From Candidatus Magasanikbacteria bacterium RIFOXYD1_FULL_40_23 (GTDB lineage: Bacteria; Patescibacteriota; Patescibacteriia; Magasanikbacterales; GWA2-37-8): a stretch of DNA of 64,000 nt. Below are positions 9,500-57,968 of the stretch, one piece after another. The notes beneath the pieces are model-generated. The model was not told where the DNA came from. It saw nothing but the letters and a program-made list of their open reading frames with translations, and did no database searches. The DNA is taken from positions 29,845-93,844 of the forward strand of contig MFRA01000005.1 in the NCBI GenBank assembly GCA_001783215.1, given 5' to 3'. Positions within the stretch are counted from its first letter, which is position 1. Every line of letters starts with the position of its first letter. The position numbers and the translations under genes were made by a program.

Positions 9500-9697
9500 T
9501 ATATAAGACAGCTAATAATTACAAAACCAATTGTACATAATTACCCGTGTTTTGTCAAGGTAAGTGAGTTTTATCCCCAAAAACAATCTATCCACACCTT
9601 GTCCCCAGTCTTTCCCCCACCTGTTTTTGGCTAACTATTGGACACCTAGCTTTATTATGTTAAGATTAAAAAGTTAAATAATAAAGGTTCTAAAAAT

Positions 9698-21943: not shown

Positions 21944-22389
21944 GTTGGACCTCCGTGTGTAGGGATTAAACAGCCTTTTTCAATTTCAAGCAAGTATATT
22001 GGCAATAGGGGGCTTCGCCGCATATATTCTCATTCACTCGGAAATAGTTTGGCAAACCAACTGTTTCACTCATTCACTTCGAATATTAAAAAAGGCGATC
22101 ACCCTCTAAATCAATTTGCATTGGTACAGAGGCGGATCGCCTTTACGTTGATACTACTAAGGGGAGGTACTTTCCCCTTTACGGGGAACATGTACTCTAC
22201 CTACCTTGGGTAGTATTAAAATTGACCTCAACCGCTTGTGGGTAGAGCCCTGGTGTCTTGACCCGAAGGTCTCGACTAATTAGGGTTGCCCGGGAAGAAG
22301 TTGGGCGTGCCATTGTTTCTCTGTTTTCTACAGATAACAGTTGCATACCCGCTTTCTCTTTTACAGTTTGAGAGTCATTATCTGCTTAG

Positions 22390-23251: not shown

Positions 23252-23290
23252 CGGCCGCCTTAATCCCTTCGGGATAGGGCGGCATTTTTA
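23252..23290 (+). terminator. rho-independent terminator
   Basis: GCCGCCTTAATCCCTTCGGGATAGGGCGGC ATTTTTAT. Confidence 0.7.
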
Positions 23291-23298
23291 TAATTGAA

Positions 23299-23465
23299 AT
23301 ATAGGTAAACCATATTTACTCGCACGCTCGGAAAAGTACATAAATGTACTTTTCGCTCACTTTGCTTGTAAATGAATGAGGAAATAGTTGGTTTACCAAA
23401 CTATTTCCGAGTGAATGAAATTATATGTAAAACTATATAATTGTAATATAGGTAAACCATATTTC
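23299..23465 (+). promoter_or_regulatory. copy G of the ~85-nt leader element family; not fused to a real gene and flanked by 19-bp perfect direct repeats
   Basis: ATATAGGTAAACCATATTT is repeated at 23299-23317 and 23447-23465. Between them are Box1 ACTCGCACGCTCGG, an 11-bp perfect IR GAAAAGTACAT/ATGTACTTTTC, Box2-like GCTCACTTTGC, then ATG opening a 22-codon ORF that contains a 10-bp IR GGAAATAGTT/AACTATTTCC. Confidence 0.5.
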
Positions 23466-23535: not shown

Positions 23536-24969
23536 ATGCGCAATATTCCTTTGGCTCTTACCTACGACGATGTATTAATTATTCCAAAACGCTCATCGCT
23601 TACATCTCGCAGTGAAGCCAACACCAAAACTAGATTAACGAAAAAAATAAATTTAAATATTCCAATTGTTAGTGCCAATATGGACACTGTTTCTGAATCA
23701 GAAATGGCAATTGCTTTGGCGCGATTGGGTGGTATTTCTTTTATCCACCGGTTCATGAGTATAGAGGATAACGTAGAGGAAATAAAACGAGTAAAGCGCG
23801 CGCAAAACTTTATTGTGGCTGATCCATATACCATAGAAGCTAGTGCCACCATTGGTGAAGCCAAAAAGTTTATAGCCGCTCACGGAGTAAGTGGTTTGTT
23901 AGTAGCAGACAGTAACAAAAAATTAAAAGGCATTTTATCTAAAAGAGATTTTGTTTTTGTAAAAGATGACAGTCAGACAGTGGAGCAAACCATGACTCCG
24001 CGAGAAAAATTAGTAGTAGGAGATAGAAATACCAGCTTTGTTCAGGCCAAAGAAAAAATGATCCAAAATAAAATAGAGAAGCTGCCGTTGGTAGATGAAA
24101 ATGACAATATAGTTGGTTTAATTACTGCAGATGATATTAAAAATTTAATTGAATATCCTTTGGCCAATGTAGATTCTGATGGGCGATTGATAGTGGGTGG
24201 GTCGGTTGGTGTGCACGGAGATTATTTAGAAAGAGCTCAAGCTTTGGTAAAAGCCGGAGTTGATGTGTTAGTAGTAGACATTGCTCATGGTCATTCGGAA
24301 ATGATGTTTAATGCTATTAAAAAAATACGAGAAGTGTGCGGCGATGTGCAAATTATCGCAGGCAATATTGCTACTGCCGAGGCCGCCAGAGATTTGTGTG
24401 AAGCCGGAGTGGATGCACTAAAGGTGGGTGTAGGCCCCGGTACGATTTGTATCACCAGGCTAGTAACTGGTTGTGGTGTGCCGCAATTAACTGCGGTGTT
24501 GTCTGTAGCCGAAGTGGCCAAGCAGTATGGTGTGCCAGTAATTGCTGATGGTGGAATACAAAAATCCGGAGATATTGTAAAAGCCATTGGTGCGGGCGCA
24601 GACACAGTAATGTTGGGTGGGTTGCTTGCTGGTACCAAAGAAAGTCCGGGGCAAATAATGAACAGAGGTGATAAAAAATATAAGGTATGCCGTGGCAGTG
24701 CTAGCTTTGCCGTAGCTCAACGCAGGCAAGCGGTTAGCCAAGAAGGCAAAAATTTAAATGAAGTAGTGCCAGAAGGTGTAGAGTCGGTGGTGCTGTACAA
24801 AGGGCCGGTAGCAGAATTAATAGGGCAGTTGGTAGGCGGAGTTAAATCCGGAATGAGTTATACCAATTCACGAACTATTTCTGATTTGCAAAACAATGTT
24901 GATTTTATGCAGATAACTTCGGCTGGTGCGCGCGAGAGCGGAGCGCACGATTTGATAGATGTTAAATAA
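23536..24969 (+). CDS. guaB: IMP dehydrogenase (with CBS pair)
   Basis: LTYDDVLIIPKRS, catalytic loop GVGPGTICITRLVTGCGVPQ, and 477 aa length. Confidence 0.88.
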   Translation: MRNIPLALTYDDVLIIPKRSSLTSRSEANTKTRLTKKINLNIPIVSANMDTVSESEMAIALARLGGISFIHRFMSIEDNVEEIKRVKRAQNFIVADPYTIEASATIGEAKKFIAAHGVSGLLVADSNKKLKGILSKRDFVFVKDDSQTVEQTMTPREKLVVGDRNTSFVQAKEKMIQNKIEKLPLVDENDNIVGLITADDIKNLIEYPLANVDSDGRLIVGGSVGVHGDYLERAQALVKAGVDVLVVDIAHGHSEMMFNAIKKIREVCGDVQIIAGNIATAEAARDLCEAGVDALKVGVGPGTICITRLVTGCGVPQLTAVLSVAEVAKQYGVPVIADGGIQKSGDIVKAIGAGADTVMLGGLLAGTKESPGQIMNRGDKKYKVCRGSASFAVAQRRQAVSQEGKNLNEVVPEGVESVVLYKGPVAELIGQLVGGVKSGMSYTNSRTISDLQNNVDFMQITSAGARESGAHDLIDVK

Positions 24970-29039: not shown

Positions 29040-29127
29040 GGAAGGGTGGCCGAGCGGTTTAAGGCAACAGTCTTGAAAACTGTCGTATCGAAAGGTACCG
29101 TGGGTTCGAATCCCACCCCTTCCGCCA
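29040..29127 (+). tRNA. tRNA-Ser (anticodon UGA), class II with long variable arm; CCA encoded
   Basis: GGAAGGGTGGCCGAGCGGTTTAAGGCAACAGTCTTGAAAACTGTC...GGTTCGAATCCCACCCCTTCCGCCA. The anticodon loop CTTGAAA gives UGA. Confidence 0.85.
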
Positions 29128-29300
29128 AATGTAGAGGGATGAGAAGTTTATTTTCAAGTTGAGCGAGAGGAAAGAAAATTTATCTTCTTTCCCGAGCGAA
29201 TGAAGAAAATACCTTAGTATTCCCCATAGCGGGGCGACGGGGCAAATTCCACCCCTTTTCTCTAGCGGTGTTAATAGCAAAAAGCTAACCCGATAACTTT

Positions 29301-32562: not shown

Positions 32563-32594
32563 TTTAATTAAATTATAGGGGTTAAAGCCAACAT

Positions 32595-32930
32595 ATGAGG
32601 AACTTTTTTCGAGTAGCTGCAAGCTTGGTAGTTATCATGCTCATGATAAGCATAATCAATTGGGTGAGCGATGATTATATTTTGGCCGGTATTTATATCT
32701 TGATTATTTTGGCAGACATGGCAGTAAGGAAAAGAAAACACGATACAGTAGCTTTGGTGTTTGGATTTTTTGCAATGACAATGTTTGAATATCTATTTGT
32801 CACTACCGGCGTAGAAACTTTTACTCGCCAAAGTTTGCTAGGAGTAATGCCAATTTGGTTGCCGATTCTGTGGTCGTATGGATTTGTTTCTATAAAAAGA
32901 GCAGTAGAGATTATAGAGAAAGGTAAATAA
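32595..32930 (+). CDS. hypothetical small membrane protein
   Basis: 111 aa, three predicted TM helices. Confidence 0.35.
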   Translation: MRNFFRVAASLVVIMLMISIINWVSDDYILAGIYILIILADMAVRKRKHDTVALVFGFFAMTMFEYLFVTTGVETFTRQSLLGVMPIWLPILWSYGFVSIKRAVEIIEKGK

Positions 32931-44224: not shown

Positions 44225-44273
44225 TTCTTCAAACAAAAAATCGACCGTATGGCCGATTTTTTGTTTGGTAATT

Positions 44274-44660
44274 TTAATTGAAATTTATATTAAAACTAAA
44301 CATTCCCATAGAGCACATTCCGCGAATGCTGGTGCCGGCCTTTTGCGCGGGCACATCTACCAAAGTCTCTCCGGAAGGTGGTAAATTTTTTCTATAATTT
44401 AGTGCTGGGATTACGAGAGATGAAGAGCAATCGAAAGTTCCTCTGGTATCTATCTTTATTACCGTGGGCATATCGGCTTTGGCATTGGTAATTCGTGGAG
44501 TATATCCACCCTTGGCGTTTATAGTTATAATCTGTTTGCCGTCTTTGATTTTTATATTATTGGCGCTAGGACCGGTATCTTTTTCTCCGCCAGAAAATAG
44601 TATAGCGCCGGTAATTACGGCAGCCACGAAGATAAAAATGGCAATAAAAGTTTTTTTCAT
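44274..44660 (-). CDS. secreted cupredoxin-like (PF13473-like) protein, copper-island member
   Basis: Signal/TM, then IKIKDGKQIITINAKGG...IRGMCSMGMFSFNINF. Leader element C precedes it. Confidence 0.3.
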   Translation of the reverse strand: MKKTFIAIFIFVAAVITGAILFSGGEKDTGPSANNIKIKDGKQIITINAKGGYTPRITNAKADMPTVIKIDTRGTFDCSSSLVIPALNYRKNLPPSGETLVDVPAQKAGTSIRGMCSMGMFSFNINFN

Positions 44661-44750
44661 ATGCGAAGTGAGTGAGTAAAATATTTAGCTTACTAAAGTA
44701 TTTTCGAACGAACGAGTATGTATGTGGCTTCAGCCCCTATATTAAAAATT
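44661..44750 (-). promoter_or_regulatory. leader element C in front of the cupredoxin-like gene
   Basis: Gene-sense: AATATAGGGGCTGAAGCCACATACATACTCGTTCGTTCGAAAATACTTTAGTAAGCTAAATATTTTACTCACTCACTTCGCATATG. Confidence 0.6.
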
Positions 44751-45761
44751 AAATAATGGTGGAATGAGGCCAAATCCCACCAAGCTATTTATTAAATTAA
44801 AAATACCAAAAAATATTACTACTAAGCCGGCAGTTTTGAAAAATATTCCAGACTGCGCTTTTTTGTGGATGCCAAGCGAGCTAAAGCTGAGCAGTGCCAA
44901 AACTGGCAAAGTGCCCAAAGCAAAAGTAAACATTATGAATGCGCCAGTCCAGAAGTTGCCGGTAGTAAGTGTATAAATTTGCATTGATTGAGTAAACCCA
45001 CAAGGCAAGAAAAATGTAGCCACACCCACCAGCATCGGTGTAAGAGTGTGGTTTATATTTTTTAGACTATGTACGCGCTTGCCAATAAAAGTAGGCATTG
45101 CCGGTTGAAGTTTTTTTACCCAAGGAAAAATATCCAAAAGATTAATACCTAGAATTAAAAGCACAGATGCTACTAGCAGGTTGAGTATAAATGTGCCGGC
45201 GATACCTAGTTGAAAAGTAGAGCCAAGCGCGCCCACCACCCCGCCTAGAATAAAAAATGAAGCCAAGCGGCCCACATGAAAAAGTATTTGTGGTTTGGTT
45301 TTGTCTCCTTCTTTGGCAAAGTTGGCTGACATAGACAACACTAGTCCGCCCACTATAGCCATACAGGTAGAAACAGAAGCGATTAAGCCTATTACAAAAG
45401 CTGTGCCATAACTAACTTCGGAAGCGGTAACTAGGTTTACGATCCCCATTTTTTGTAGGGCAATAAATACAACTATAAATCCAGCCGCAATTGGTATAGC
45501 TTTATAAAAATCAGACCAGTTAATTATTTTGGTTTCTTTTTCTAAAGATAAAGTATATCCGTGCGGTTGTAGAGTCGTAGATAGTTCTGCAGCGATTTGT
45601 TCATTTGTTTTTTCGCCAAATTCTCCGGTAACCTCTACGCTTAAATCTGGTAAGCAAGCCTTTACTTGTTTAACTTGAGGCAAATCGCCTAGCTCGCTTT
45701 CTGTAAGCACTACGCACGAGTTGCAGTGCATACCGTTTACATGAAATTTATATGTTTGCAT
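44742..45761 (-). CDS. N-terminal heavy-metal-associated (HMA) domain fused to a DsbD_2/CcdA-like polytopic membrane domain
   Basis: GMHCNSC (HMA). Membrane Cys pair VSTCMAIVGG / FFLPCGFT. Confidence 0.55.
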   Translation of the reverse strand: MQTYKFHVNGMHCNSCVVLTESELGDLPQVKQVKACLPDLSVEVTGEFGEKTNEQIAAELSTTLQPHGYTLSLEKETKIINWSDFYKAIPIAAGFIVVFIALQKMGIVNLVTASEVSYGTAFVIGLIASVSTCMAIVGGLVLSMSANFAKEGDKTKPQILFHVGRLASFFILGGVVGALGSTFQLGIAGTFILNLLVASVLLILGINLLDIFPWVKKLQPAMPTFIGKRVHSLKNINHTLTPMLVGVATFFLPCGFTQSMQIYTLTTGNFWTGAFIMFTFALGTLPVLALLSFSSLGIHKKAQSGIFFKTAGLVVIFFGIFNLINSLVGFGLIPPLFNF

Positions 45762-45768
45762 ATTGTTT

Positions 45769-45840
45769 TGTCATCCTGAACGGAGTGAAGGATCCCTTAC
45801 ACCCAAATGAGAGGGATTCTTCGCTTTGCTCAGAATGACA
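45769..45840. repeat. inverted pair of GTCATYCTGA...GGATC units (family R) between copA and the HMA-DsbD_2 gene
   Basis: TGTCATCCTGAACGGAGTGAAGGATCCCT ... GAGGGATTCTTCGCTTTGCTCAGAATGACA. Confidence 0.6.
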
Positions 45841-45907
45841 GTTAAAGTTAATTTTTAAATCGATTTATCTACTACATAGTGTAGTAGCAATAATTATGTT
45901 TGTCAAC

Positions 45908-48241
45908 CTAAAGTTTTTTAGTTTTAATTCGTAAAGAATTTCCTACTACTGATACACTAGATAAAGCCATAGCTAATCCGGCAAAAATAGGGTTGAGCAA
46001 CCAGCCAAACAGTGGGTAGAATACTCCAGCGGCCAGTGGTATGCCAACTATATTGTATATAAACGCCCAGAAAAGATTTTGTTTTATTCCGCGCATTGTC
46101 ATTTTGGAAAGTTTGATTGCTTTGACTAGTTTGGATATATCTCCGCCAAGCAGAGTGATGCCGGCAGATTCTATGGCCACATCTGTGCCTGTGCCCATGG
46201 CAATGCCTACGTCGGCTTGAGCCAGTGCTGGCGCATCGTTTACTCCATCTCCGGCCATAGCTACCACTTTGCCTTGTGTTTGTAGCTCTTTTATTTTTAT
46301 CAGTTTGTCTTGTGGCAAAACATGTGCCATTACATCATCAATATCAACTAGAGAGGCAATATAGTTGGCGGCTCTTTGGTCATCACCTGTAACCATTACC
46401 ACTTTAATTCCTAATTTATGAAGATCATTTACTGCTTGTTTTGATTCTGCTTTTATTTCATCAGCCACCATTACAAATCCGAGCACTTTTTCTTTGGTAG
46501 CCAAAATTACCGGAGTTTTTCCTTGGGCAGTAAATTGTTCAATTTTTGTAGAATCAAAAGTTATGCCAAGATCTTGGATAAGTTTTGTGTTGCCGGCAAA
46601 ATATTGTATTTCGTCTACCAAACCTGTAACCCCCTTGCCTTGAAGTCCTTCAAAATCGTGAACATCTTTGGTGTCAATATTTTTTTCTGTTGTGTAATTT
46701 ACAATTGCGTGCGCAATTGGGTGTTCTGATTTTTTTTCGAGTGATGCCAGAATAGAAACAAGCTCGGCATCTTTTAGGTCTGATAAATTTTGAATATCAA
46801 CCAACGTTGGTTTGCCGATAGTAATTGTGCCGGTTTTATCTACAACTACAGTGTTTACTTTGTGAAGCTTTTCCAAGGTAGCCGCATCTTTTATTAAAAT
46901 TCCAGCGCGCGCGCCTTTGCCTACTCCAACTATAATAGCGGTCGGTGTAGCCAGTCCAAGTGCACAAGGGCAAGCGATAACAAGTACGCCGACAAAAGAT
47001 ACTAAACCGTATGATAATGCTTGAGAAAATCCAAGTGGGCCAGTACCAAATATAAGCCAAGCACCCAAGGATAAGACAGAAATAACAAGAACTATAGGAA
47101 CAAAGACGCTAGATATTTTGTCGGCCAGAGCTTGAATAGGTGCTTTGCTTCCTTGCGCATCTTCTACCATTTTTATTATTTGAGCTAGTAGAGTTTCGGA
47201 TCCTACTTTGGTAGCTTTAAAAGTAAATGACCCGCTTGTATTTATAGTGCCCGACACTACATTGTCGCCAACTTTTTTTTGCGCAGGCATTGGCTCGCCT
47301 GTTACCATTGATTCGTCTACAAAAGAAGCGCCTTCGGTAATAGTGCCATCTACCGGGATTTTTGTACCCGGTTTTACAATAATTAAATCACCGTGTTTTA
47401 CATTGTTTACGGGTACTTCTATTTCTTTACCGTCGCGAATAACCAAAGCTGTTTTGGCCTGCAAGTTAAGAAGTTTTTCTATTGCATCTCCGGTTTTTAT
47501 TTTTGATTTTGCTTCCAAATATTTACCAAAAGCTATAAATGCTATAACTATGATAGTCACATCATAATAAGTATTCTCAACATTTATATAAGGGCTTAAT
47601 CCTTTTTCGAAAGCAGTTACAGCAAAACTATATAAAAAAGCTACTGAAGTGCCAATACCAATCAAAGTGTCCATGTTGGCTTTGCCATAGCGTAAGAACC
47701 TATAAAATCCCAAGAGGTACGGCTTTCCTACTACAAATAACATGTAAGTAGCAATCAGAGGTAGTAAGTGATGAAAAAATTCCATTAGCGTTTCGTTGGG
47801 TGCGGCAATATATTTTAGTTCGGAAAAAATATCCCAACTCATGATAAAAGCGCTTAGTATGGTTAGCGGTATAGAAATTAAAACCATAGTTTGCATGTTG
47901 GCTATTTCGGCTAGCTTTTCTTTTTTTGATTGGTTCAATCCCAAGTGGGCAGCGTGCTCATCTGCAGACATTCCCATTTCTTCGGCTGACATGTCTTTAT
48001 GTTTGATTGGCATGCTCATTTCTTCATTTTCAGGTATAGAAAGCGTATATCCGAGGTGTTCTATTTTTTTGGAAAGATCGTGGGCGCTAGTTTTATTTTC
48101 ATCAAAAGAAATTTTGGTTGTTTCGGTACCATAGTTTACTTCGGCCGAGTGTACTCCTTCGGTTTTTTTGAAAGTTTTTTCTATAATGCCGGCGCAAGAG
48201 GCGCAATGCATTCCTTTTACCCGATAGGTCTGGCTTTGCAT
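45908..48241 (-). CDS. copA: copper-translocating P1B-type ATPase
   Basis: [17 protein letters not shown] motif [11 protein letters not shown], phosphorylation site DKTGTIT, and [10 protein letters not shown]. Confidence 0.92.
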
Positions 48242-48248
48242 ATATTTT

Positions 48249-48515
48249 TTATTTACGTTTTAATTTATACACCTTAAGAATTTCTTGTTTGGCTTTGTCG
48301 GTTTGGCCGGATTTTATTTGGTTTATAATACAACCACCCAAGTGGTTTTCTAAGAGTAAATCTTCTACATTTGAGAGGGCTTGTTTAGCTGCTGAGGTTT
48401 GAGTAATTACATCTATACAGTAAATATCGCCCGCAACCATTTTTTGCAGGCCACGAATTTGACCTTCTATTAGTTTAAGGCGGCGCATTATTTTGGGTTT
48501 ATTTTTATTATGCAT
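48249..48515 (-). CDS. csoR: CsoR/RcnR-family copper-sensing repressor
   Basis: 88 aa. [13 protein letters not shown], then Cys ... H-x3-C (DIYCID...ENHLGGC) matching the CsoR Cu(I) ligand spacing. Confidence 0.8.
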
Positions 48516-48538
48516 ATATTTTTATAATATACCATATG

Positions 48539-48555
48539 ATACCCTATGGGGGTAT
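48539..48555. promoter_or_regulatory. CsoR-type operator ATACCCTATGGGGGTAT overlapping the csoR-copA promoter
   Basis: GC-rich pseudo-palindrome TACCC-N5-GGGTA, 24-40 nt upstream of the csoR ATG. Resembles characterised CsoR operators. Confidence 0.6.
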
Positions 48556-48570
48556 TGTTAACAAGTCTTT

Positions 48571-48612
48571 ATAATAGGATGAGATTATTTATAAATAATC
48601 TCATCCTATTAT
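48571..48612. repeat. 42-bp perfect palindrome (ATAATAGGATGAGATTATTTA | TAAATAATCTCATCCTATTAT)
   Basis: Every position pairs with its partner. Sits between the Met-rich gene 3' end and the csoR promoter. Confidence 0.8.
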
Positions 48613-48630
48613 CGTATTTCGTAAAAATTA

Positions 48631-48969
48631 TTATTTACTCATCATATTTTTCATTGTCCCGCTGCTTTCTGATGCTTTTATATTTTCTTTCATATATTTT
48701 TCTCCCATCATTTCCATATCTTTTCCTTTGGAAACAGCCCCATCATTTTTTAATTCCATTCCCATTTCTTGCATCATTGAGCCGCCTGTTTTCATCATAG
48801 TAGCCATTGTTTGAATAGAGGCTGATTGTTCTTTCATCATGGCAATTGAATCCTGCAGCTCTTTGGTTTGAGCGCTATTATTATTTATATTTTTTCCAGA
48901 TGAATAACCAATGCCTCCGCCAACAGCGAGGGCAATAATTATTCCGATGGTGAATGTTGTAGTTTTCAT
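48631..48969 (-). CDS. Met-rich secreted protein (putative periplasmic Cu(I)-binding, MxM/MMxxM motifs)
   Basis: Signal peptide, then MMKEQSASIQTMATMMKTGGSMMQEMGME...MEMMGEKYM...MKNMMSK. Confidence 0.45.
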   Translation of the reverse strand: MKTTTFTIGIIIALAVGGGIGYSSGKNINNNSAQTKELQDSIAMMKEQSASIQTMATMMKTGGSMMQEMGMELKNDGAVSKGKDMEMMGEKYMKENIKASESSGTMKNMMSK

Positions 48970-49043
48970 ATGTGAAATGAGTGAATATAAAGTTAAATGT
49001 TTTTAACTTTATATGAGCGAATAAGTATATACCTTAGTATATT
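48970..49043 (-). promoter_or_regulatory. leader element D in front of the Met-rich protein gene
   Basis: Gene-sense: AGGTATATACTTATTCGCTCATATAAAGTTAAAAACATTTAACTTTATATTCACTCATTTCACATATG. Confidence 0.55.
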
Positions 49044-49056
49044 TAAGATAAGTTAA

Positions 49057-49278
49057 TTAAATAATTTTTCCTTGCTTTTCAAGCATCATATGATGAATCG
49101 TGCTGACTGCAAGCCAAATAGCGATTAGGATAAGAATGCCAGAGCAAAGCAGGGCATCTATTTTTGTAATTCCAAAAACGAGATTATCGCCTCCGCCAAG
49201 AATTGCCGTTGTAAATGTTATGATTCCGGTAGTTCCTACTACGACACTTGCAACGTGCATTAATTTTGATAGTTTCAT
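49057..49278 (-). CDS. small two-TM membrane protein, hypothetical
   Basis: 73 aa, downstream of the RND pump gene. Confidence 0.35.
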   Translation of the reverse strand: MKLSKLMHVASVVVGTTGIITFTTAILGGGDNLVFGITKIDALLCSGILILIAIWLAVSTIHHMMLEKQGKII

Positions 49279-49374
49279 ATGTGTGAATATATGTATTAAA
49301 TATTTAACTTCCGATTGTTGAGTGTAATTATATTACATATTTTATGGATTAATTAGTAAGTTTGAATCTTGTTA

Positions 49375-52300
49375 TTAAAACCCGGATGCCCCTGTTTCTT
49401 TATTTTGATTTTGCAATGCAGTTTTTTTGCCGAAACGATAGAATAATGCAGGTGTTAAGAATAAAGAAATGATAGTAGAAGAAATAAGTCCCCCAAATAT
49501 TACAACTGCCAATGGGTTAAGCATTTCTTTGCCCGGTTCTCCACCGGAAATGATAAGTGGGATAAGCGCAAGTGCAGCTACAAGCGATGTCATAAGTACT
49601 GGCACTACACGATCGAGGGTGGCTTTTACGATTGTTTCTGGCTCAAATGGTAATCCTTCTTTTTGTACTAGTGCTAAACTGCGTCCAATTAGCATGATTC
49701 CATTTCTAGAAACAATTCCAGCAAGTGAAATAAAACCAACCAAGTGCGCTAGACTTACGGATCCGCCGGTTAGCCAGACGCCAATCATTCCGCCTATTAA
49801 CACTGTGGGGATATTGGTCATTACCAAAAGTACAATTGGAATTGATCTAAAAGCATGGTACAACACGCCAAATATCATAATCATCCCGATAATAAACACT
49901 AGTGCCAGTCGCTGGGAATTTTCTTTTTGGCTTTTATAATTACCTTCAAAAGAAAGAGTTATTCCGGTAGGTAGTTTTTGGGACTCAAGTGCAGTTTTGG
50001 CTCTGCCAACAGCCCCAACCACATCTGTGCCCTGATAATTGGCAGAAACTACTAATACTCGTTTTCCTCCTTCATGGTTTTGGCTATTGCGGCCGCCTTC
50101 AACCAGAATATCTCCTACGCTTCCCAACGACGGCGCACCCATAAAAGGAAGCGATAAATCCCGTAATGATGCCATTGTGCCTTTTGATTCCGCGTCATAG
50201 CGTGCGATAACATCAACCGAAGCGGGGCCTAGACGGACTTGTCCTAAATTATCTCCCATAATTCCCATTGCCAAATCATTGGCAACTTCGCCGGGAGATA
50301 ATGCATATTCGGCTAAACGATTTCTATCAACATAAATACGAAATTCCGGTACAATGGTATTTTGCTGAATGCGTGGATTATCAATCCCCGGTTGTTTTTG
50401 CAGTTCGGCTAATACTTGTTTGGCCGCATGTTCCATATTTTCCGGATCATCACCAAATATTTTTACTACAATCGGCGATCGTACGCCCGATAGTAGCATT
50501 TCAACACGGTGTGTAATTGGCTGCCCCAAACTAAAGTCTGCGCCGCCAAACCGGTCAAGCACCGCTTGAATATCCTCGAGAATTTGATCGCGCTCACCCT
50601 CAAATTCTGGTTTAAGTGCAATCTGAACTTCGCTTGAATTTGCACTGCCTCCATGAGGGTCAGCCGATGCTCGTCCAGCAATATTACTTACTTGGCGCAC
50701 TCCTTCTACTTGCAGAATAGCCTTTTCAAGCTTGGCCATATAATCATTCGTTGTAGAAAGCGCCGTACCTGGCGGTAAGAAAACCATAGCCACCATTGAT
50801 CCTTCGTTAAATGGCGGAATTCCCTCTTTACCGGCAAAGAAATACATGCCTACGGTAAGAAAAAGCGCAACAATTGTAACACCAGTAATGATTTTTACAT
50901 TAATGATGCACCAGTTAATCCAAGGCGTTATATACTCCTTAATTTTTTGTACAACTTTAGTCTCCTTTTCATGCTTGGCTAGTGACTTGTCATTTAGCAG
51001 TAGTGCGGACAAAACCGGTGTTACTGTAAGTGATATTGCCATGGATGCAAAAAGAGATACAAGATAGGCAGAACCAAGAGCTATAAGCAAACGCCCTTCA
51101 ATTCCTGGCATAAAGAATATGGGTAAAAATACTACCGCGACAAGTATTGTTGCATATACGATTGAATTACGAACTTCTTGTGAAGCCAGTAAAACAACAT
51201 GTTCGCGATTTTCTTTTTTACCACCCAGCATCCACAAACGTAGACGACGAAAAATATTTTCCACATCAACAATTGCATCATCAACAAGTTCTCCCACTGC
51301 CACCGCGATACCGCCCAAGGTCATCACATTTACCGAAAGATCAAAAGCTTTAAATATGATAGCTGTGGCTAAAATAGATAGAGGAATTGCTGTTAGCGTA
51401 ATCATCGTCATTCTCATATTCATTAGAAATATAATGAGAACTAAAATGACAAGGACAGTACCGTCTAGAAGTGCTCGCTCTACATTGCTTAATCCGGCGC
51501 GAATGAAATTTTCTTGGCGGAAAAGATCTGGATGAAGCTCTACTCCGTTAGGAAGACTGGCCGAAAGGGAGTTGAATGTTTTATTGATTGCATCCGTAAC
51601 AGCAAGAGTTTGCGCATCTGGCTGGCGAATGATGCGTAAAATGACACCCTCTTTACCATCAATTGCTCCGCTGCCGCGAATAATACTCGCTCCTTCCACA
51701 ACCGATGCAATATCACCAAGTCGAAGTGGGCGTCCATCCATAATATTGCGTCCGATAGAAATATCTTCCAATTGCGAAGCTTCAGTTGGTGCGGTAAGAA
51801 TACGGATTACATATTCTTTTTCGTTCTCAGTAAGAAGACCACCGCTTTTATTCGTCAAAGTGTTTTCCACACTTTTGCGAACATCATCAATCATGATTCC
51901 ATAACGACGCATGCGTTCGGCATTAATATTTATCTGCCACTCACGCACATCACCGCCCATGACAAACACATTTGCGACTCCTGGCATTTTGAGCAGCGCG
52001 GGACGAATGGTCCAATCTGCAAGCGTTCGTAGTTCCATCGGAGTAATTTTTGCATCGGATGCTGTTATTCCAATCCAGGCGATTTCGCCCAAAAGAGATG
52101 TTGCCGGACCAAGAGTTGGCCTTACACCAAATGGCAACACTGCTTGTGTTAAACGTTCTTGCACTACTTGTCTGTTTCGCAATGTATCGCTCCCCCAAGC
52201 AAACTCCATATTAACGGTGGCTTGCGCGAATGAAGCGCTGCTTCGTATGCGATCAACTCCTGGCGCGCCCGCAACTGCCGCTTCTATTGGATTAAGAATG

Positions 52301-52491
52301 AGCCGCTCCACTTCTTCGGCCGCCATGCCTGGACTTTCCGCAAAGATGGTAACGGTTGGTTTATTTATATCTGGAAGAATATCCACTTTCATTGTGGCCA
52401 CGCTCCATAGACCTGTTATCGTCATAATTCCGGCCAGAACAAGTACGGTAATTTTATTTCCTAGAGCCCAAGATATTATCTTGTTAAACAT
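49375..52491 (-). CDS. cusA: HME-family RND efflux permease (CusA/CzcA-like)
   Basis: 1038 aa, 12-TM RND architecture. N-terminus MFNKIISWALGNKITVLVLAGIMTITGLWSVATMKVDILPDINKPTV. Confidence 0.85.
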   Translation of the reverse strand: MFNKIISWALGNKITVLVLAGIMTITGLWSVATMKVDILPDINKPTVTIFAESPGMAAEEVERLILNPIEAAVAGAPGVDRIRSSASFAQATVNMEFAWGSDTLRNRQVVQERLTQAVLPFGVRPTLGPATSLLGEIAWIGITASDAKITPMELRTLADWTIRPALLKMPGVANVFVMGGDVREWQININAERMRRYGIMIDDVRKSVENTLTNKSGGLLTENEKEYVIRILTAPTEASQLEDISIGRNIMDGRPLRLGDIASVVEGASIIRGSGAIDGKEGVILRIIRQPDAQTLAVTDAINKTFNSLSASLPNGVELHPDLFRQENFIRAGLSNVERALLDGTVLVILVLIIFLMNMRMTMITLTAIPLSILATAIIFKAFDLSVNVMTLGGIAVAVGELVDDAIVDVENIFRRLRLWMLGGKKENREHVVLLASQEVRNSIVYATILVAVVFLPIFFMPGIEGRLLIALGSAYLVSLFASMAISLTVTPVLSALLLNDKSLAKHEKETKVVQKIKEYITPWINWCIINVKIITGVTIVALFLTVGMYFFAGKEGIPPFNEGSMVAMVFLPPGTALSTTNDYMAKLEKAILQVEGVRQVSNIAGRASADPHGGSANSSEVQIALKPEFEGERDQILEDIQAVLDRFGGADFSLGQPITHRVEMLLSGVRSPIVVKIFGDDPENMEHAAKQVLAELQKQPGIDNPRIQQNTIVPEFRIYVDRNRLAEYALSPGEVANDLAMGIMGDNLGQVRLGPASVDVIARYDAESKGTMASLRDLSLPFMGAPSLGSVGDILVEGGRNSQNHEGGKRVLVVSANYQGTDVVGAVGRAKTALESQKLPTGITLSFEGNYKSQKENSQRLALVFIIGMIMIFGVLYHAFRSIPIVLLVMTNIPTVLIGGMIGVWLTGGSVSLAHLVGFISLAGIVSRNGIMLIGRSLALVQKEGLPFEPETIVKATLDRVVPVLMTSLVAALALIPLIISGGEPGKEMLNPLAVVIFGGLISSTIISLFLTPALFYRFGKKTALQNQNKETGASGF

Positions 52492-52501
52492 ATAACTTTA
52501 A

Positions 52502-54259
52502 TTACATTTCCATTCCACCCATATCTTTATCCTTGCCCGACTTAGCAGGAGTAGAACCGGCGCCCTCTTTTGGAGCAGTTTTTATAAGATCATCAAGAAA
52601 CATATTTTCTTTTATTTCCGGTGTGGGATTTTGTATATAACGGTCACCATTCTTAAGTCCGGCATATACTTCCACCACAGCTCCGAGAGTGCGGCCAATG
52701 GTTATTTCTTGCGCAAATATTCTATCGGCTTCTGATATTGCCCATACTACCGGTGTTCCTTTTTCGTTCCAAAGAATTGAGGAATATTTAATTAACTCAA
52801 CAGCAGAGCTAGAAGGAGAAAGTACTCTTATAGAGGATCCCACGGGCCATTTTGTTGATTCTATAAAAATAGCATCAGCCATATATGAACCATCATCAAG
52901 AGAACTACCCACGCCTACAAGCCGTACCTTTTTTATATCGGTTCCAAAACCGGGACGAACGATAGAAAGCAGCTCTCCGATTTTTGGTTTTTGTATATTA
53001 TTTGGCATGCTTATTCTTACTAGTTCATTGCCATTATCATTTGCAGTTACAGTAGCTACTGGCATGCCCGGACCCACAAACTCACCTGGTTTTTTCATAA
53101 TACTAGATATGACACCGCTATTTGGCGCAACTATGGAGTAGCCGCCGCTGATTGAGCCCCTAACACTCGCATAAGCTGTTTCATTGGCGACGACATCTCC
53201 TTCCGACATGGCTAATTCTTTTTCTAACTCGGCAATCATTGCGTCTATCTCAGCCAAGGTATCAATGGATTCTCTTTGTGTATTAACACTTTCCAGTTCC
53301 ATGCTTTTAATTTCACCAAGCATGGCGACAAATTCTGACTGATCTTCAACCAGCATTTTTTTGAGTGTTTCCAGATCGGCTTCCATTAATGTTTCCATAT
53401 CAGCAATAGATGCGTTTGCAAGTTTAATTGCGCTATCAAAGTATAGAGATCCCGAGCGCTCTATTTCTTTTAGATCAAACAATGCCTTGTAAGTAATGTT
53501 GGGGAAATTATTACGCAAATTTTGATCTAAGATTCCGAATGTAGGTTTAAGTGGGATGCTAAAAAATAATCCGGCGGAGGGAATTCTACTTTGGCCATAC
53601 ATCATCGAAAAAGTTTTTGTGATTGATCCATTCAAAACCACTTGCGCCAATTTCTTTTTTGATTCAATTGAAGATAGCAAAATATTTCCGCTTGCGGACG
53701 TGTTTGATCCGATTAAGCCTATTTTTTGTTTATTTGAGCTTTCTGTATCTATACGAAGCTTTTGCAGTTGTGCAATTCTTTTGGCTGTATAAGTGCGTAG
53801 AGCCTCTACGCTCGTACGTGCTTCGGATAACATCTGAGATTTTTCCGAGAGCATGCTTACCATCTCCGGTGTTTGTGGCGGTCGTGAAAGTTTTCCGATA
53901 ATTTGACCTGCGGTGACGCGCTCGCCAATACGCACATACCACCTAGAGATAGTTCCCTCACGATCGGGTTGCACCTGTAAATTATTAAGAGAAATAATTT
54001 CTCCGGGCCATGAATTGTTTGAGGTGCCAGTAATTGAAAAATCCTCTTTTCCAACTATGGCTACTACTGGGCTGTCTGTAATTAGGTTGCTACTAGCAGA
54101 TTTACTATCTGCTATATTTGCTGATGCGCTTTTGCTTATAGAATAGAAAGCAAAGACCCCGGTAGCTATAACTAGCAAGATTGAAACAGATGCTATTGTA
54201 AGCGCCCGTTTTTCTAGCAGCTTAACACTCTGTATTAGGTTTTTTATTTTTTCTTTCAT
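52502..54259 (-). CDS. cusB: RND periplasmic adaptor (membrane fusion protein, CusB-like) with a Met-rich C-terminus
   Basis: N-terminal TM, biotinyl/lipoyl-like GEIISLN...GQIIGKL, C-terminal ...KDMGGMEM. Confidence 0.7.
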   Translation of the reverse strand: MKEKIKNLIQSVKLLEKRALTIASVSILLVIATGVFAFYSISKSASANIADSKSASSNLITDSPVVAIVGKEDFSITGTSNNSWPGEIISLNNLQVQPDREGTISRWYVRIGERVTAGQIIGKLSRPPQTPEMVSMLSEKSQMLSEARTSVEALRTYTAKRIAQLQKLRIDTESSNKQKIGLIGSNTSASGNILLSSIESKKKLAQVVLNGSITKTFSMMYGQSRIPSAGLFFSIPLKPTFGILDQNLRNNFPNITYKALFDLKEIERSGSLYFDSAIKLANASIADMETLMEADLETLKKMLVEDQSEFVAMLGEIKSMELESVNTQRESIDTLAEIDAMIAELEKELAMSEGDVVANETAYASVRGSISGGYSIVAPNSGVISSIMKKPGEFVGPGMPVATVTANDNGNELVRISMPNNIQKPKIGELLSIVRPGFGTDIKKVRLVGVGSSLDDGSYMADAIFIESTKWPVGSSIRVLSPSSSAVELIKYSSILWNEKGTPVVWAISEADRIFAQEITIGRTLGAVVEVYAGLKNGDRYIQNPTPEIKENMFLDDLIKTAPKEGAGSTPAKSGKDKDMGGMEM

Positions 54260-54372
54260 AATCGAAGTGAGTGAATTAAATAATGTAGGAGAAAATAATG
54301 AGCTTGCTCAATTATTTTCGAGTGGATTATTTATGAGCGAATGAGATTATATGGGCCTTAGCCTCTATAAAT
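54260..54372 (-). promoter_or_regulatory. leader element E (perfect TATAAT / Box1 CTCATTCGCTC / long hairpin / Box2 CACTCACTTCG / attATG) in front of cusBA
   Basis: Gene-sense: TATAGAGGCTAAGGCCCATATAATCTCATTCGCTCATAAATAATCCACTCGAAAATAATTGAGCAAGCTCATTATTTTCTCCTACATTATTTAATTCACTCACTTCGATTATG. Confidence 0.6.
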
Positions 54373-54452
54373 AAATGAATAAGTAAAATTAGCAATATAA
54401 AAAAATCCCTTAGCGGGGATTTGAAAGACATAGCTTTTTATAAAGCAAGCAG

Positions 54453-54914
54453 CTATGTCTTATATGAAAAAGAAGGGCTGTTTTCAAAAAGTGCCAGCCA
54501 CTTGGTTATGTTATTTAGTTTACATGAAGGCGGCCATTGTTTTATGCGATGTTTGGCCAAAAAAGATAAGTACAAATTTAGTTTTAAGAGCATCTGTCTG
54601 CCAAATAACCAAAAAAGAATTGAGAACGTAATAGTTAGTAACATTACTAGTAAAATACTTTTTGAGAAAAGAATATTAGAAAAAGTTTGGTAAGCAGAAA
54701 TATGGTGTATCGTTACCGCTAAAGTGTTTGTAGGGCAAAACTCATTACCTGGTAGAGAAAAGGGGCATTTACTAGTCATGTATTGGTTAGTGTCCATGCT
54801 CATATCCATCATAAAGATAAGCCCAAAAATAACTACCCCAATAAAAATTACAGAGGTAAAAATGGATGTAAGTTTAATTTTTAGTTTTTTATTTATCATA
54901 TCTAAATTAAGCAT
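54453..54914 (-). CDS. hypothetical polytopic membrane protein at the head of the copper island
   Basis: 153 aa, TM-rich. A CsoR-type operator overlaps its annotated start; the real start may be the internal Met at 54899. Confidence 0.4.
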   Translation of the reverse strand: MLNLDMINKKLKIKLTSIFTSVIFIGVVIFGLIFMMDMSMDTNQYMTSKCPFSLPGNEFCPTNTLAVTIHHISAYQTFSNILFSKSILLVMLLTITFSILFWLFGRQMLLKLNLYLSFLAKHRIKQWPPSCKLNNITKWLALFENSPSFSYKT

Positions 54915-54934
54915 ATACCCCCAGGGGGGTATAT
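54913..54934. promoter_or_regulatory. second CsoR-type operator ATATACCCCC-AG-GGGGGTATAT (10-bp perfect arms)
   Basis: Perfect inverted repeat at the 5' end of the membrane-protein gene. Same TACCC/GGGTA core as the csoR operator. Confidence 0.55.
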
Positions 54935-55105
54935 GTCAAGTGTGGATAAATATATAAATAAAAAACAACTCCGTTAGGAATTGTTTTTTAAATTTGTAAT
55001 TTCATGGAGGAGGCATTAGTGGAGCCAATTGTTTAGCTTAACTAATGCGCGCTCCTCCATGAATGTATCTGTTAGAGCGCGCCGACAACTGTGTCGGGTG
55101 GCGTT

Positions 55106-55864
55106 CTAGGCCACGGCGGCCATGATGCTGGACTGCTCGAACTTGGGGTTCGTCAGCAGGGCGAAGATCCGGGCGAAGCGCTCGTGGCCGAGCTCGCTGG
55201 ACTGCCACCCCTTCTGGTCCAGCTCGGCCTGCGTGTACTTCTGGGCGCAGGAGCCGTTGCGGGCGATGGTGACGTTGCCGTCCTTGTCGATGTGGTAGAC
55301 GGTGGCGCTCTTCTTCTTGGCACCATCGAGGAACACCAGGGCGATCAGCATGCCGCCGCTGACCTTCCAGATGACGGGGGTCATCGCCATGTTGGTGGCG
55401 TTGAACTCGTCGGTGGCGGGGTCGTTCTCCATGACCTTCCCCTGGAGGGCGGGCAAGCTGCCCGGGTACTGGAGGGAGACCGTGGTCTCGCCGGCGGTGA
55501 TCTTGATGGTCTCCATCGGCTGCGCGTTGCGCTTCTTCTGGGCCTTGTCCAGCCGGTGACCCACCAGGAGCCAGTGCCGCATGTTGCGCAGCTCCTGCCG
55601 CTCCCAGTAGGGCGAGCATGCCTTCTGCCGGATGCCGAAGTTCAGCTCGATCTTCGCCGCGACCTCGGGGCACATCGGGCAGACGATCCCGCTCCGCTCG
55701 TTGTGCAGGAACGGGCGCTTGCCACCCATGCAGAGGAAGTAGCTGTAGTTCTCGAGCGCGTACAAGGCGCCGGTCTCGGTGATGGCCTTCGTCGTGAAGG
55801 TCTGGCGCATGGTGCGCGCGTGCGAGGGGGTGAGCTTGTACGAGTCCTGGCTCATGGTGATCAT
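55106..55864 (-). CDS. hypothetical Cys-containing protein encoded in a very GC-rich block; strong SD (AAGGAGA)
   Basis: AAGGAGACTGCT ATG ATC ACC ATG. Balanced amino-acid composition, whereas the overlapping ORFs 55038-56048(-) and 55091-55960(+) are Arg/Ala/Gly/Pro artefacts. Cys-containing motifs FLCMGG, CPMCPE and KACSP. Confidence 0.5.
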   Translation of the reverse strand: MITMSQDSYKLTPSHARTMRQTFTTKAITETGALYALENYSYFLCMGGKRPFLHNERSGIVCPMCPEVAAKIELNFGIRQKACSPYWERQELRNMRHWLLVGHRLDKAQKKRNAQPMETIKITAGETTVSLQYPGSLPALQGKVMENDPATDEFNATNMAMTPVIWKVSGGMLIALVFLDGAKKKSATVYHIDKDGNVTIARNGSCAQKYTQAELDQKGWQSSELGHERFARIFALLTNPKFEQSSIMAAVA

Positions 55865-56036
55865 AGCAGTCTCCTTGGCGGTCGAAACGTCGTGTTGGTA
55901 ACCCTGAAACAGGGTCACCTATGGAAAAAATGGGATTTCTCCCTGTTTTGGAGGCCCTAATTAAGGCATCTAAAGCAGGGAAAAACCGTGTTTTAGTGAT
56001 AAATTGTAAAGAAAATGTTGCATATAGCAACCAAAC

Positions 56037-56069
56037 AATATACCACAAAAAAGCCCTTTTGTCAACCCC
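56037..56069 (-). promoter_or_regulatory. sigma70-like promoter (GGGGTTGACA / 17 nt / TATATT) on the minus strand, reading toward the GC-rich gene
   Basis: rc of 56060-56065 is TTGACA; rc of 56037-56042 is TATATT. Confidence 0.45.
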
Positions 56070-57885: not shown

Positions 57886-57895
57886 CTGGTTTAGT

Positions 57896-57968
57896 TGTCA
57901 TTCTGAGTAAAGCGAAGAATCCCTCTTGTCCGAACGAAAGGGATCCTTCACTCCGTTCAGGATGACAG
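57896..57968. repeat. inverted pair of GTCATTCTGA...GGATC units (family R) after trhO, overlapping the 5' end of the next ORF
   Basis: TGTCATTCTGAGTAAAGCGAAGAATCCCTC ttgtccgaacgaa AGGGATCCTTCACTCCGTTCAGGATGACA. Same two arm sequences as at 45769-45840 but in swapped order. Confidence 0.6.

Follow-up and report, generated by a model that had tools for sequence, protein, structure and literature searches.

A putatively composite copper-efflux island with a predicted CsoR switch and a structured leader element in a Candidatus Magasanikbacteria genome

The Copper Island and Its Genes

The window analysed here, a 64-kb stretch of a 433-kb contig from Candidatus Magasanikbacteria, a member of the candidate phyla radiation (CPR), contains a copper island of nine minus-strand genes. 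They encode, in order, a membrane protein (the head gene), CusB, CusA, a small two-helix membrane protein (TM73), a Met-rich protein, the repressor CsoR, CopA, an HMA-DsbD_2 fusion, and a cupredoxin-like protein (Table 1). The best explanation overall, and one that we consider reasonably probable, is that this is a composite copper-efflux island under CsoR control. Within it, cusBA would be reached by read-through, a 42-bp palindrome would serve as a terminator, and a leader element found at three gene junctions would be a generic expression module. Comparison loci are given L-numbers. The window is matched at 99.5-100% identity by a second assembly and two JGI contigs, which thus add no diversity.

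The island was first described in a prediction made from the DNA letters alone, which reported two CsoR operators, the palindrome and the gene order. All of its coordinates and sequences proved exact, and the copper reading is borne out by the CopA signatures, the CusA/CzcA-type resistance-nodulation-division (RND) pump and the Met-rich protein. Two details require correction. The head gene most likely starts at its second ATG, at 54899, in agreement with the NCBI call, and the ATG at 54914 falls within operator 2 and the -10 region. The cupredoxin-like protein lacks His ligands.

P1B-1 ATPases are recognised by a CPC motif in the transmembrane metal site, YN and MxxSS motifs, and an N-terminal CxxC. 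CopA has all of these signatures as well as DKTGT468, and scores 601.8 bits against TIGR01511 (cut-off 397). The RND pump has its best solved matches in CusA and ZneA, and carries the A-x5-D-x6-E motif of the fourth transmembrane helix (TM4). Two points weigh against a straightforward assignment as CusA: its TIGR00914 score, still by far the best of any family, is under the cut-off of 701.45 bits, and a hand-counted alignment places Met at only two of the three CusA Met-triad positions (M573 and M672), with Ser at 623. For these reasons, a CusA-type metal specificity of the pump is putative.

The CusB-like protein has 103 homologues; all those with a source name, and all whose contexts were fetched, are from CPR organisms. 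The Met-rich gene follows cusA, directly or one small gene on, in 13 of 13 island loci compared (L128-L140). Neither Pfam nor NCBIfam contains a family match to the head membrane protein, TM73 or the Met-rich protein. A homologue search with the head protein returned a single distant relative, and synteny led to the others: the first island genes of L128 and L129, and L127, with which it shares 31-38% identity. The same two databases identify no OEP- or CusF-family gene in the island, which has the non-homologous Met-rich protein instead. CPR cells are thought to lack an outer membrane, and the RND pump appears to work without an outer-membrane partner.

Table 1. Features of the copper island, listed in minus-strand order with positions in the window.
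Feature	Position	Strand	Details
TTATCCACA, DnaA-box consensus	54941..54949	-	1 nt upstream of head-promoter -35; 3 exact copies in window against 0.47 expected
Head promoter	54910..54939	-	TTGACA, spacer, -10 overlapping 3' TAT of operator 2; 10/12 match
CsoR operator 2 (predicted)	54913-54934	.	ATATACCCCCAGGGGGGTATAT; TAC-CCCCAGGGGG-GTA (N10)
Head gene, membrane protein	54453..54899	-	148 aa; C45, C55, H65-H66; motifs CPF..CP..HHIS..WLALxENSP
Terminator-like hairpin	54403..54422	-	AAATCCCCGCTAAGGGATTT then T7; between head gene and cusB
Leader before cusB	54257..54365	-	long P2; 44.1 bits; absent in L128, L129, L135
cusB, RND membrane-fusion protein	52502..54259	-	585 aa; TIGR01730, 64.9 bits
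cusA, CusA/CzcA-family heavy-metal RND pump	49375..52491	-	TIGR00914, 653.9 bits
Promoter-like site	49339..49366	-	TTCAAA-16-TAAAAT; after cusA, upstream of TM73; 9/12, weak
TM73, two-helix membrane protein	49057..49278	-	73 aa; 74-81% identical to island genes of L128, L129, L140
Leader before Met-rich gene	48967..49057	-	64.6 bits
Met-rich membrane-anchored protein	48631..48969	-	112 aa, 17 Met
Perfect palindrome	48571..48612	.	42 bp; 21-nt arms, 100% complementary, 0 nt between
csoR promoter (inner promoter)	48536..48564	-	TTGTTA-17-TATCAT; layout as in L128, L134, L135
CsoR operator 1 (predicted)	48539-48555	.	ATACCCTATGGGGGTAT; TAC-CCTATGGGG-GTA (N9), exact fit to dyad
csoR	48249..48515	-	88 aa; C33, H58, C62; PF02583, 82.8 bits
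copA, P1B-1 Cu(I) ATPase	45908..48241	-	CASC13, CPC424, YN729, MALSS758
Third promoter	45869..45906	-	TTGACA-17-TACACT (45906-45878); 10/12
Inverted repeat over -10 of third promoter	45869-45887		CTACTAC-N5-GTAGTAG; operator-like, not CsoR type
MITE-like repeat	45769..45840	.	TGTCATTCTGAGC...GATCCTTCAC...GTTCAGGATGACA; just upstream of HMA-DsbD_2 start
HMA domain (CNSC13) fused to DsbD_2 membrane domain	44742..45761	-	Pfam/NCBIfam and motifs
Leader before cupredoxin-like gene	44658..44750	-	starts right after upstream stop; 85.1 bits
Cupredoxin_1-domain protein	44274..44660	-	signal anchor; C-terminal MCSMGM
Bidirectional terminator	44230..44267	.	common to island end and convergent msrB; inverted-repeat scan

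CsoR and Its Operators

The island CsoR is recognised by Trns_repr_metal (PF02583) well above the cut-off of 22.8 bits, and the structures closest to it are the solved CsoRs 4adz, 4m1p and 2hh7 (E = 8e-17 to 6e-11). In the alignment to the Streptomyces lividans and Geobacillus thermodenitrificans CsoRs, its C33, H58 and C62 fall on the YCID and HxxxC residues. The x-C-H-C fingerprint of Cu(I) ligands is thus complete: a Cys, a His 25 residues on, and a Cys 4 further. Homologues at 84-92% identity are numerous in CPR genomes.

The consensus of type-2 CsoR operators is ATATACCCCTNAGGGGTATAT, and binding requires a TAC-N9-GTA dyad (PMC3902906). In the 64 kb, the pattern TACCC-N2-8-GGGTA occurs at the two operators and nowhere else (shuffled sequences: mean 0.21, maximum 2). 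Both operators sit in the spacers of sigma-70-like promoters, with the -10 beginning at the last TAT of the operator. The same layout, in which the -35 is followed by 2-4 nt, TAC...GTA and a -10 starting from the operator's 3' TAT, is common to 11 sites, two in the window and nine in L122, L124, L125, L128, L129, L134, L135 (two) and L136. Most of the nine have N9 between TAC and GTA. L128, L129 and L135 keep operator 2 in front of their homologous head genes. The match to the consensus, the placement in the promoter spacer and the conservation in relatives all uphold the original view of these two sites as good type-2 CsoR operators at promoter positions.

This comparative layout is strong support for repression by promoter occlusion, with CsoR predicted to bind both operators and to leave the DNA when it carries Cu(I). 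The inner promoter would then express csoR-copA, and the head promoter, once released, would express the small Cys/His membrane protein. Two observations count against this scheme. Firstly, the alpha-1 motif of the island CsoR is R12-L-K-L15 and not RLxR, with Leu in place of the second Arg and the first retained. Secondly, the TAC-GTA span of operator 2 is 10 nt, one longer than 9. The RLxR motif of the DNA-binding helix alpha-1 is common, rather than universal, among CsoRs (PMC3902906), and the CsoRs of the CPR relatives L134 and L135 have RLKI there. More generally, the 11 aligned sites provide a safe anchor for reading CPR promoters, as the positions of the -35 and -10 can be inferred from them.

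The islands with divergent CsoRs, those of L130 and L131 (CsoR 32-36% identical) and of L128 (59%), have G-rich boxes in promoter spacers instead of the C/G palindrome. These are direct repeats of TAGGGGTATAGGGTA or TAGGGGATAGGGGTA at L130 14414-14428 and L131 8420-8434, and a partial TAGGGTGAGGGGGTA at L128 8984-8998. They may be a different type of operator.

The DnaA-box consensus that lies beside the head promoter has counterparts elsewhere. TTATCCACA or its reverse complement is found 1-8 nt upstream of the -35s of CsoR-type promoters in L122, L128, L129, L130, L131 and L135. The window also contains rpmH-dnaA, with boxes resembling TTATCCACA at 9560-9600. A pair of TTATCCACA copies at 22.5 kb was considered as an oriC beside dnaA and ruled out: the gene at 23536 encodes IMPDH, and dnaA is at 9698.

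Transcription Units within the Island

A hairpin of ATCCC/GGGAT with a T-run is kept at the junction of the head gene and cusB in L128, L129, L135 and the window. In L128, the spacer is 76 nt and the cusB ATG directly follows the hairpin, which leaves no room for a promoter, and a promoter scan of the window gave no sigma-70-like minus-strand site upstream of the cusB leader. These observations are the reason to regard cusBA as probably fed by the CsoR-controlled head promoter, with transcripts reading through a conserved, weak terminator hairpin. An argument against this is that the hairpin resembles a competent terminator, with a 7-bp stem and T7; because of this, cusBA could use an unrecognised promoter in or just upstream of its leader.

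The two genes after cusA, TM73 and the Met-rich gene, may have a promoter of their own. The AT-rich promoter-like site upstream of TM73 has similar sequences in the same place, after cusA, in L128, L129 and L140, and both genes would lie behind it.

A further promoter was overlooked in the original prediction. It precedes HMA-DsbD_2, and is kept there, together with the inverted repeat over its -10, in L122, L124 and L125/L126. The CTACTAC-N5-GTAGTAG site looks like the operator of a regulator other than CsoR, and the HMA-DsbD_2 and cupredoxin-like genes would share a conserved promoter with an inverted repeat of its own. Between this promoter and the HMA-DsbD_2 start lies a repeat resembling a miniature inverted-repeat transposable element (MITE). 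The window has a second copy at 57890-57967, both copies are just upstream of start codons, and the island spacers of L128, L129 and L122 contain many more.

The 42-bp Palindrome

The perfect palindrome begins 18 nt after the stop codon of the Met-rich gene and ends 6 nt before the -35 of csoR. As RNA, it is predicted to fold with -26.5 kcal/mol, compared with -8.0 +/- 2.5 for shuffled sequences (z = -7.4). Downstream of the Met-rich gene in L128, L129, L134 and L135 comes a GC-rich hairpin of 12-20 bp with a T-run, and after it the following promoter; the palindrome fills exactly the slot of these terminators. For this reason, its most likely role is that of a terminator or insulator hairpin, a reading to which we give about an even chance. 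Its RNA hairpin would end or stabilise the Met-rich transcript and shield the csoR promoter from read-through. The palindrome had been described as far longer than a normal terminator stem. This is not so for this genome, in which long perfect inverted repeats are the usual terminators, and the rpmH terminator also has perfect arms of 21 nt.

Several features fit poorly with a terminator. A stable stem-loop shortly after the stop codon is present, as in an intrinsic terminator, but no U-run directly follows the stem: the transcribed strand lacks one (UAUUAUAAAGAC), and in the terminator scan only the plus strand is flagged. On the minus strand, the tail reads AAAGACUUGUU, and U-richness is confined to the last bases of the stem (UAUUAU). 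In addition, the stem is AT-rich (4 G-C pairs out of 19), and the palindrome is perfectly symmetric, a property that selection on an RNA hairpin does not require.

The missing U-tract and the perfect 21+21 symmetry without a loop are what would be expected if the palindrome acted at the level of DNA, as the site of a dimeric protein or a recombinase. Alternatively, it could be a recombination scar, perhaps perfected by template switching and with little present function. It also lies exactly at the junction of module-type and resident-type sequence (see below), is unrelated in sequence to the terminators that relatives have at this position, and is a singleton among the sequences compared, with no second copy in the window or in 137 loci from other organisms. 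A metagenome scan gave 0 matches as well, which is a weak negative, since JGI contigs L002 and L003 carry the palindrome and the collection misses them. Against such a DNA element stand arms that far exceed known operator half-sites, and an island in which Pfam and NCBIfam find no recombinase or extra regulator gene. Moreover, relatives have their terminators at this very position, past the Met-rich stop and shortly ahead of the following promoter, and equally long perfect inverted repeats serve as terminators in this genome. A DNA-level role is, on this evidence, a minority possibility, and the terminator or insulator hairpin is preferred. Derivation of the palindrome from a leader copy was ruled out: the overlap with the cusB copy is just the 10-nt ATAATCTCAT.

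The Leader Element

The genes cusB, the Met-rich gene and the cupredoxin-like gene are each preceded by a copy of a leader element. This consists of a hairpin (P1), a CU-rich box 1 (CTCATTCGYTC), a second hairpin (P2), a CU-rich box 2 (TCACTCAYTTCG), 3 nt, and the ATG, which stands 4 nt on from the G with which box 2 usually ends. The spacing of the boxes ranges from 31 to 59 nt. The ATG is in the same register in 14 of 18 aligned copies, drawn from at least nine genomes, box 2 is nearly invariant, and wherever an ATG follows, leader and gene point in the same direction. In the window, 10-11 copies are recovered with a covariance model; the three of the island score 44-85 bits (E = 5e-6 to 8e-14).

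P2 is paired at 89.8%, compared with 72% in shuffled sequences and 33-56% when the partners are slid. All of its pairs (10/10) show compensatory changes, and many are G-U. Covariation that includes G-U pairs points to a sense-strand RNA. P1 forms in most copies, with differing sequences, and single-sequence folds predict open boxes and an open AUG. Rfam gave no match, whether the gathering score or E <= 5 was applied, and a permissive threshold gave nothing other than terminator-driven chance matches.

With the covariance model, L134 and L129 also yield copies that were not used to train it, and there are more in other Magasanikbacteria and Patescibacteria genomes. A scan of a genome collection with a loose pattern gave 118 matches, most of them due to chance; a stricter filter left about 12 true copies, almost all of them from records with the label Patescibacteria or just 'bacterium'. 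Judged by its pairing and distribution, the leader is a real structured cassette of the 5' untranslated region (5'UTR) in several CPR genomes.

At all three island junctions, the relatives lack the leader and have short spacers or overlapping genes; for the cupredoxin junction, these are spacers of 11-22 nt or overlaps. Relative to L140, the Met-rich copy is a clean insertion of about 70 nt directly before the ATG, with TA on both sides. In this genome, the leader would have been inserted at each of the three junctions. It also precedes genes unrelated to copper, encoding TipAS-domain, LUD-domain and YgjP-like peptidase proteins. With unrelated genes downstream and no match to a curated family, it does not behave as a riboswitch or a known cis-regulatory family. 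The leader is not a copper sensor, nor is it a copper-specific alternative layer of regulation.

Such a second layer had been part of the original prediction, which held that cusBA, the Met-rich gene and the cupredoxin-like gene respond to the leader and the other genes to CsoR. The observation behind it is right: these genes have the leader and no CsoR box directly upstream. They could accordingly be separate units, set by the leader as a promoter or regulatory RNA, independently of CsoR and in parallel with it. A terminator-like hairpin or a stop codon is found directly upstream of each leader copy, P1 opens with a TATA-like sequence that could be a -10, and the palindrome and the 54403-54422 hairpin would isolate the units. 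However, no sigma-70-like site was scored upstream of the three island copies, G-U covariation points to sense-strand RNA, and the occurrence of the leader before unrelated genes and its lack at the same junctions in relatives do not fit with a dedicated copper layer. L134 speaks most directly to the order of the elements. Here, P1 starts about 8 nt after the -10 of a complete CsoR-operated promoter (TTGCCA-17-TATAAT), and the full leader runs on to the csoR ATG; the leader is hence transcribed rather than being a promoter. Since it lies downstream of a CsoR-operated promoter on the csoR transcript, it works in series with CsoR and not instead of it. Two parallel layers are thus not supported and appear unlikely. 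Interpretation of the boxes as a -35 and -10, or as the site of a DNA-binding protein, was ruled out by their variable spacing, the G-U covariation and the full promoter upstream in L134.

From these features, we infer that the leader is a generic expression module that contributes stability and initiation without a Shine-Dalgarno sequence. The 5' hairpin would stabilise the transcript, and an open region without a Shine-Dalgarno sequence would surround the start. A simple regular expression gave a purine-rich, Shine-Dalgarno-like match at 9 of 60 listed gene starts, at least one of them spurious, and most gene starts in the window have A/T-rich sequence up to the ATG. A literature search on translation initiation in CPR yielded nothing. 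A more specific and quite tentative proposal is that the leader represents a new class of CPR 5'UTR cassette, built from a 5'-terminal hairpin, two conserved, single-stranded CU-rich boxes with a covarying hairpin as a clamp, and a fixed 4 nt between the usual last G of box 2 and the AUG. In genomes with few Shine-Dalgarno sequences, it would provide ribosome recruitment and mRNA stability and spread by insertion directly before start codons. In this way, tightly coupled junctions, three of them in the island, would be turned into independently translated cistrons. The leader is the least ordinary part of the island, being a conserved, covarying RNA next to start codons in a genome whose genes mostly lack Shine-Dalgarno sequences. 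Should it drive translation initiation, it would bear on how these reduced organisms start translation.

Orphan and degenerate copies, at 23289 (+), 29149 (-) and 21995 (+), argue against an expression role for the leader as such. These copies, of which the one at 29149 is antisense to a tRNA gene, would be expected of a selfish repeat, similar to MITEs or repetitive extragenic palindromic (REP) sequences, for which the position at start codons is a by-product of insertion at TA (TATG). The gain and loss of the leader between close relatives, the tandem copies in L010 and L075, and the TA on both sides of the Met-rich insertion agree with this. MITEs are recognised by terminal inverted repeats, a target-site duplication, and presence or absence between relatives; the last of these is shown for the leader, and in the alignment of the copies no terminal inverted repeats were seen by eye. 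The fixed ATG register in 14 of 18 copies, the nearly invariant box 2, and the shared orientation of all copies followed by an ATG are also difficult to reconcile with it. In L135, box 2 alone is kept, directly before the csoR ATG, which suggests selection on box 2. A repeat with no role in expression is therefore improbable, and the generic expression module remains the favoured reading.

The atypical copies are arranged as follows. Copies at 21995-22087 (+) and 23289-23374 (+) are accompanied by one at 23362-23450 (-) that overlaps the latter, and the outer two face inward around 1.3 kb. The copy at 21995 has no ATG; it is followed by ATT and then by about 600 nt without a long open reading frame, which hold two TTATCCACA (22523, 22555). 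The degenerate copy at 29149-29237 (-) is directed into the antisense strand of a tRNA gene (29040-29124), and hence is not a 5'UTR. A lone hairpin of P1 type, TATAGGGGTTAAAGCCAACAT (32570-32594), abuts the ATG of the gene at 32595, and L129 also has a stand-alone P1. As P1 hairpins occur on their own, the cassette appears to be modular.

Composite Origin of the Island

Three syntenic relatives have uppP, csoR-copA-HMA/DsbD_2-cupredoxin and msrB-ygjP without the cusBA block. Their uppP-csoR gap is 120-160 bp, and the window has about 7.5 kb extra at this place. Other CPR loci, located in different neighbourhoods, have the order memb-cusB-cusA-Met-rich-TM73-csoR-...-copA. Compared with the window, their CusA is 84-96% identical and their CusB 65-82%, whereas CsoR is 32-64% and CopA 36-48% identical. 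Near-identical CusA alongside diverged CsoR and CopA indicates recent exchange of a metal-efflux module among CPR bacteria. For the pump gene itself, the near-identity suggests either very recent spread or strong constraint.

The promoters follow the same division. The head promoter, with TTATCCACA 1 nt from its -35 and then CTTAATTT, resembles the csoR promoter of L122, and its nearest relatives are the csoR promoters of the syntenic loci L122 and L125. The inner promoter, which drives csoR in the window, resembles the promoters of cusBA-type islands.

We hold with moderate confidence that the island is composite, with a circulating memb-cusBA-TM73-Met-rich module lying between a resident csoR promoter and the resident csoR operon. 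A module circulating in CPR would have recombined in between the resident csoR promoter and the csoR gene, and would have brought a second CsoR-operated promoter along. Weighing against this, the assignment of the head promoter as resident rests on short ungapped similarities (0.51-0.60). The original prediction did not remark on the chimeric make-up.

Just upstream of the island lies a block (55040-56065) of 61% GC within a genome of about 39% GC. A minus-strand frame in it, 55106-55864, has 12 homologue clusters with a best identity of 70%; NCBI annotates the opposite strand. Its protein has no match in Pfam, NCBIfam, plasmids or phages. The block has a near-consensus, host-type promoter (TTGACA-17-TATATT with TG, 56065-56037), a leader of about 130 nt, and a terminator at 54959-54990. 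The block has the look of a recent import from a high-GC organism. An assembly chimera was rejected, as the block is present in the second assembly at about 99.5% identity; this support is limited, since both assemblies come from the same population.

Relation to Known Systems

The palindrome shares with intrinsic bidirectional terminators its stability, its position right after a stop codon and in the terminator slot of relatives, and a length like that of others in this genome. It differs in the missing U-run, the AT-rich stem, and a symmetry that leaves no separate loop sequence.

For the leader, the comparators are 5'-stabiliser hairpins and Shine-Dalgarno-independent, pyrimidine-rich leaders (the Escherichia coli ompA 5'UTR and S1-dependent leaders), as well as REP sequences and bacterial interspersed mosaic elements (BIMEs). 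As in leaders of the ompA type and the S1-dependent type, the L134 copy places a hairpin at the predicted 5' terminus of the transcript, with open CU-rich tracts between it and the AUG. As with REP and BIME repeats, the leader is multi-copy, intergenic and variable between relatives. Unlike any of these, it has a fixed layout of two boxes and two hairpins, a fixed distance of 4 nt from the G of box 2 to the start, and boxes kept across several CPR genomes, and it belongs to no Rfam family.

The cusBA pair resembles the E. coli CusCFBA system in having a CusA/CzcA-family pump with an adjoining membrane-fusion protein, the TM4 motif A-x5-D-x6-E and Met at the CusA positions M573 and M672, and a small Met-rich accessory protein encoded beside the pump. 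In contrast to CusCFBA, the island has no outer-membrane factor or CusF homologue, M623 is replaced by Ser, the pump scores below the NCBIfam cut-off, and the fusion protein, at 585 aa, is unusually long. Control is predicted to be by CsoR and not by a CusRS two-component system.

The nearest counterpart of the switch is CsoR-copZA of Bacillus subtilis and S. lividans. The repressor family and the Cys-His-Cys ligand set are the same, the island operator is near-identical to ATATACCCCTNAGGGGTATAT with its TAC-N9-GTA dyad (PMC3902906), and in the island, too, the repressor is predicted to control its own gene and to share a transcript with a P1B-1 Cu(I) ATPase. The differences are the lack of a CopZ gene, with HMA domains fused to CopA and to the DsbD_2 membrane protein instead; Leu for the second Arg of RLxR; the 10-nt span of one operator; a second operator, for the membrane protein and probably the RND pump too; and the CPR host. 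The copper switch and pumps are thus ordinary members of known families in an unusual host: an uncultivated, host-dependent group has a copper switch of the textbook kind, with operators that nearly match the streptomycete consensus. The points worth following are the composite origin, the third operator-like site and the leader cassette.

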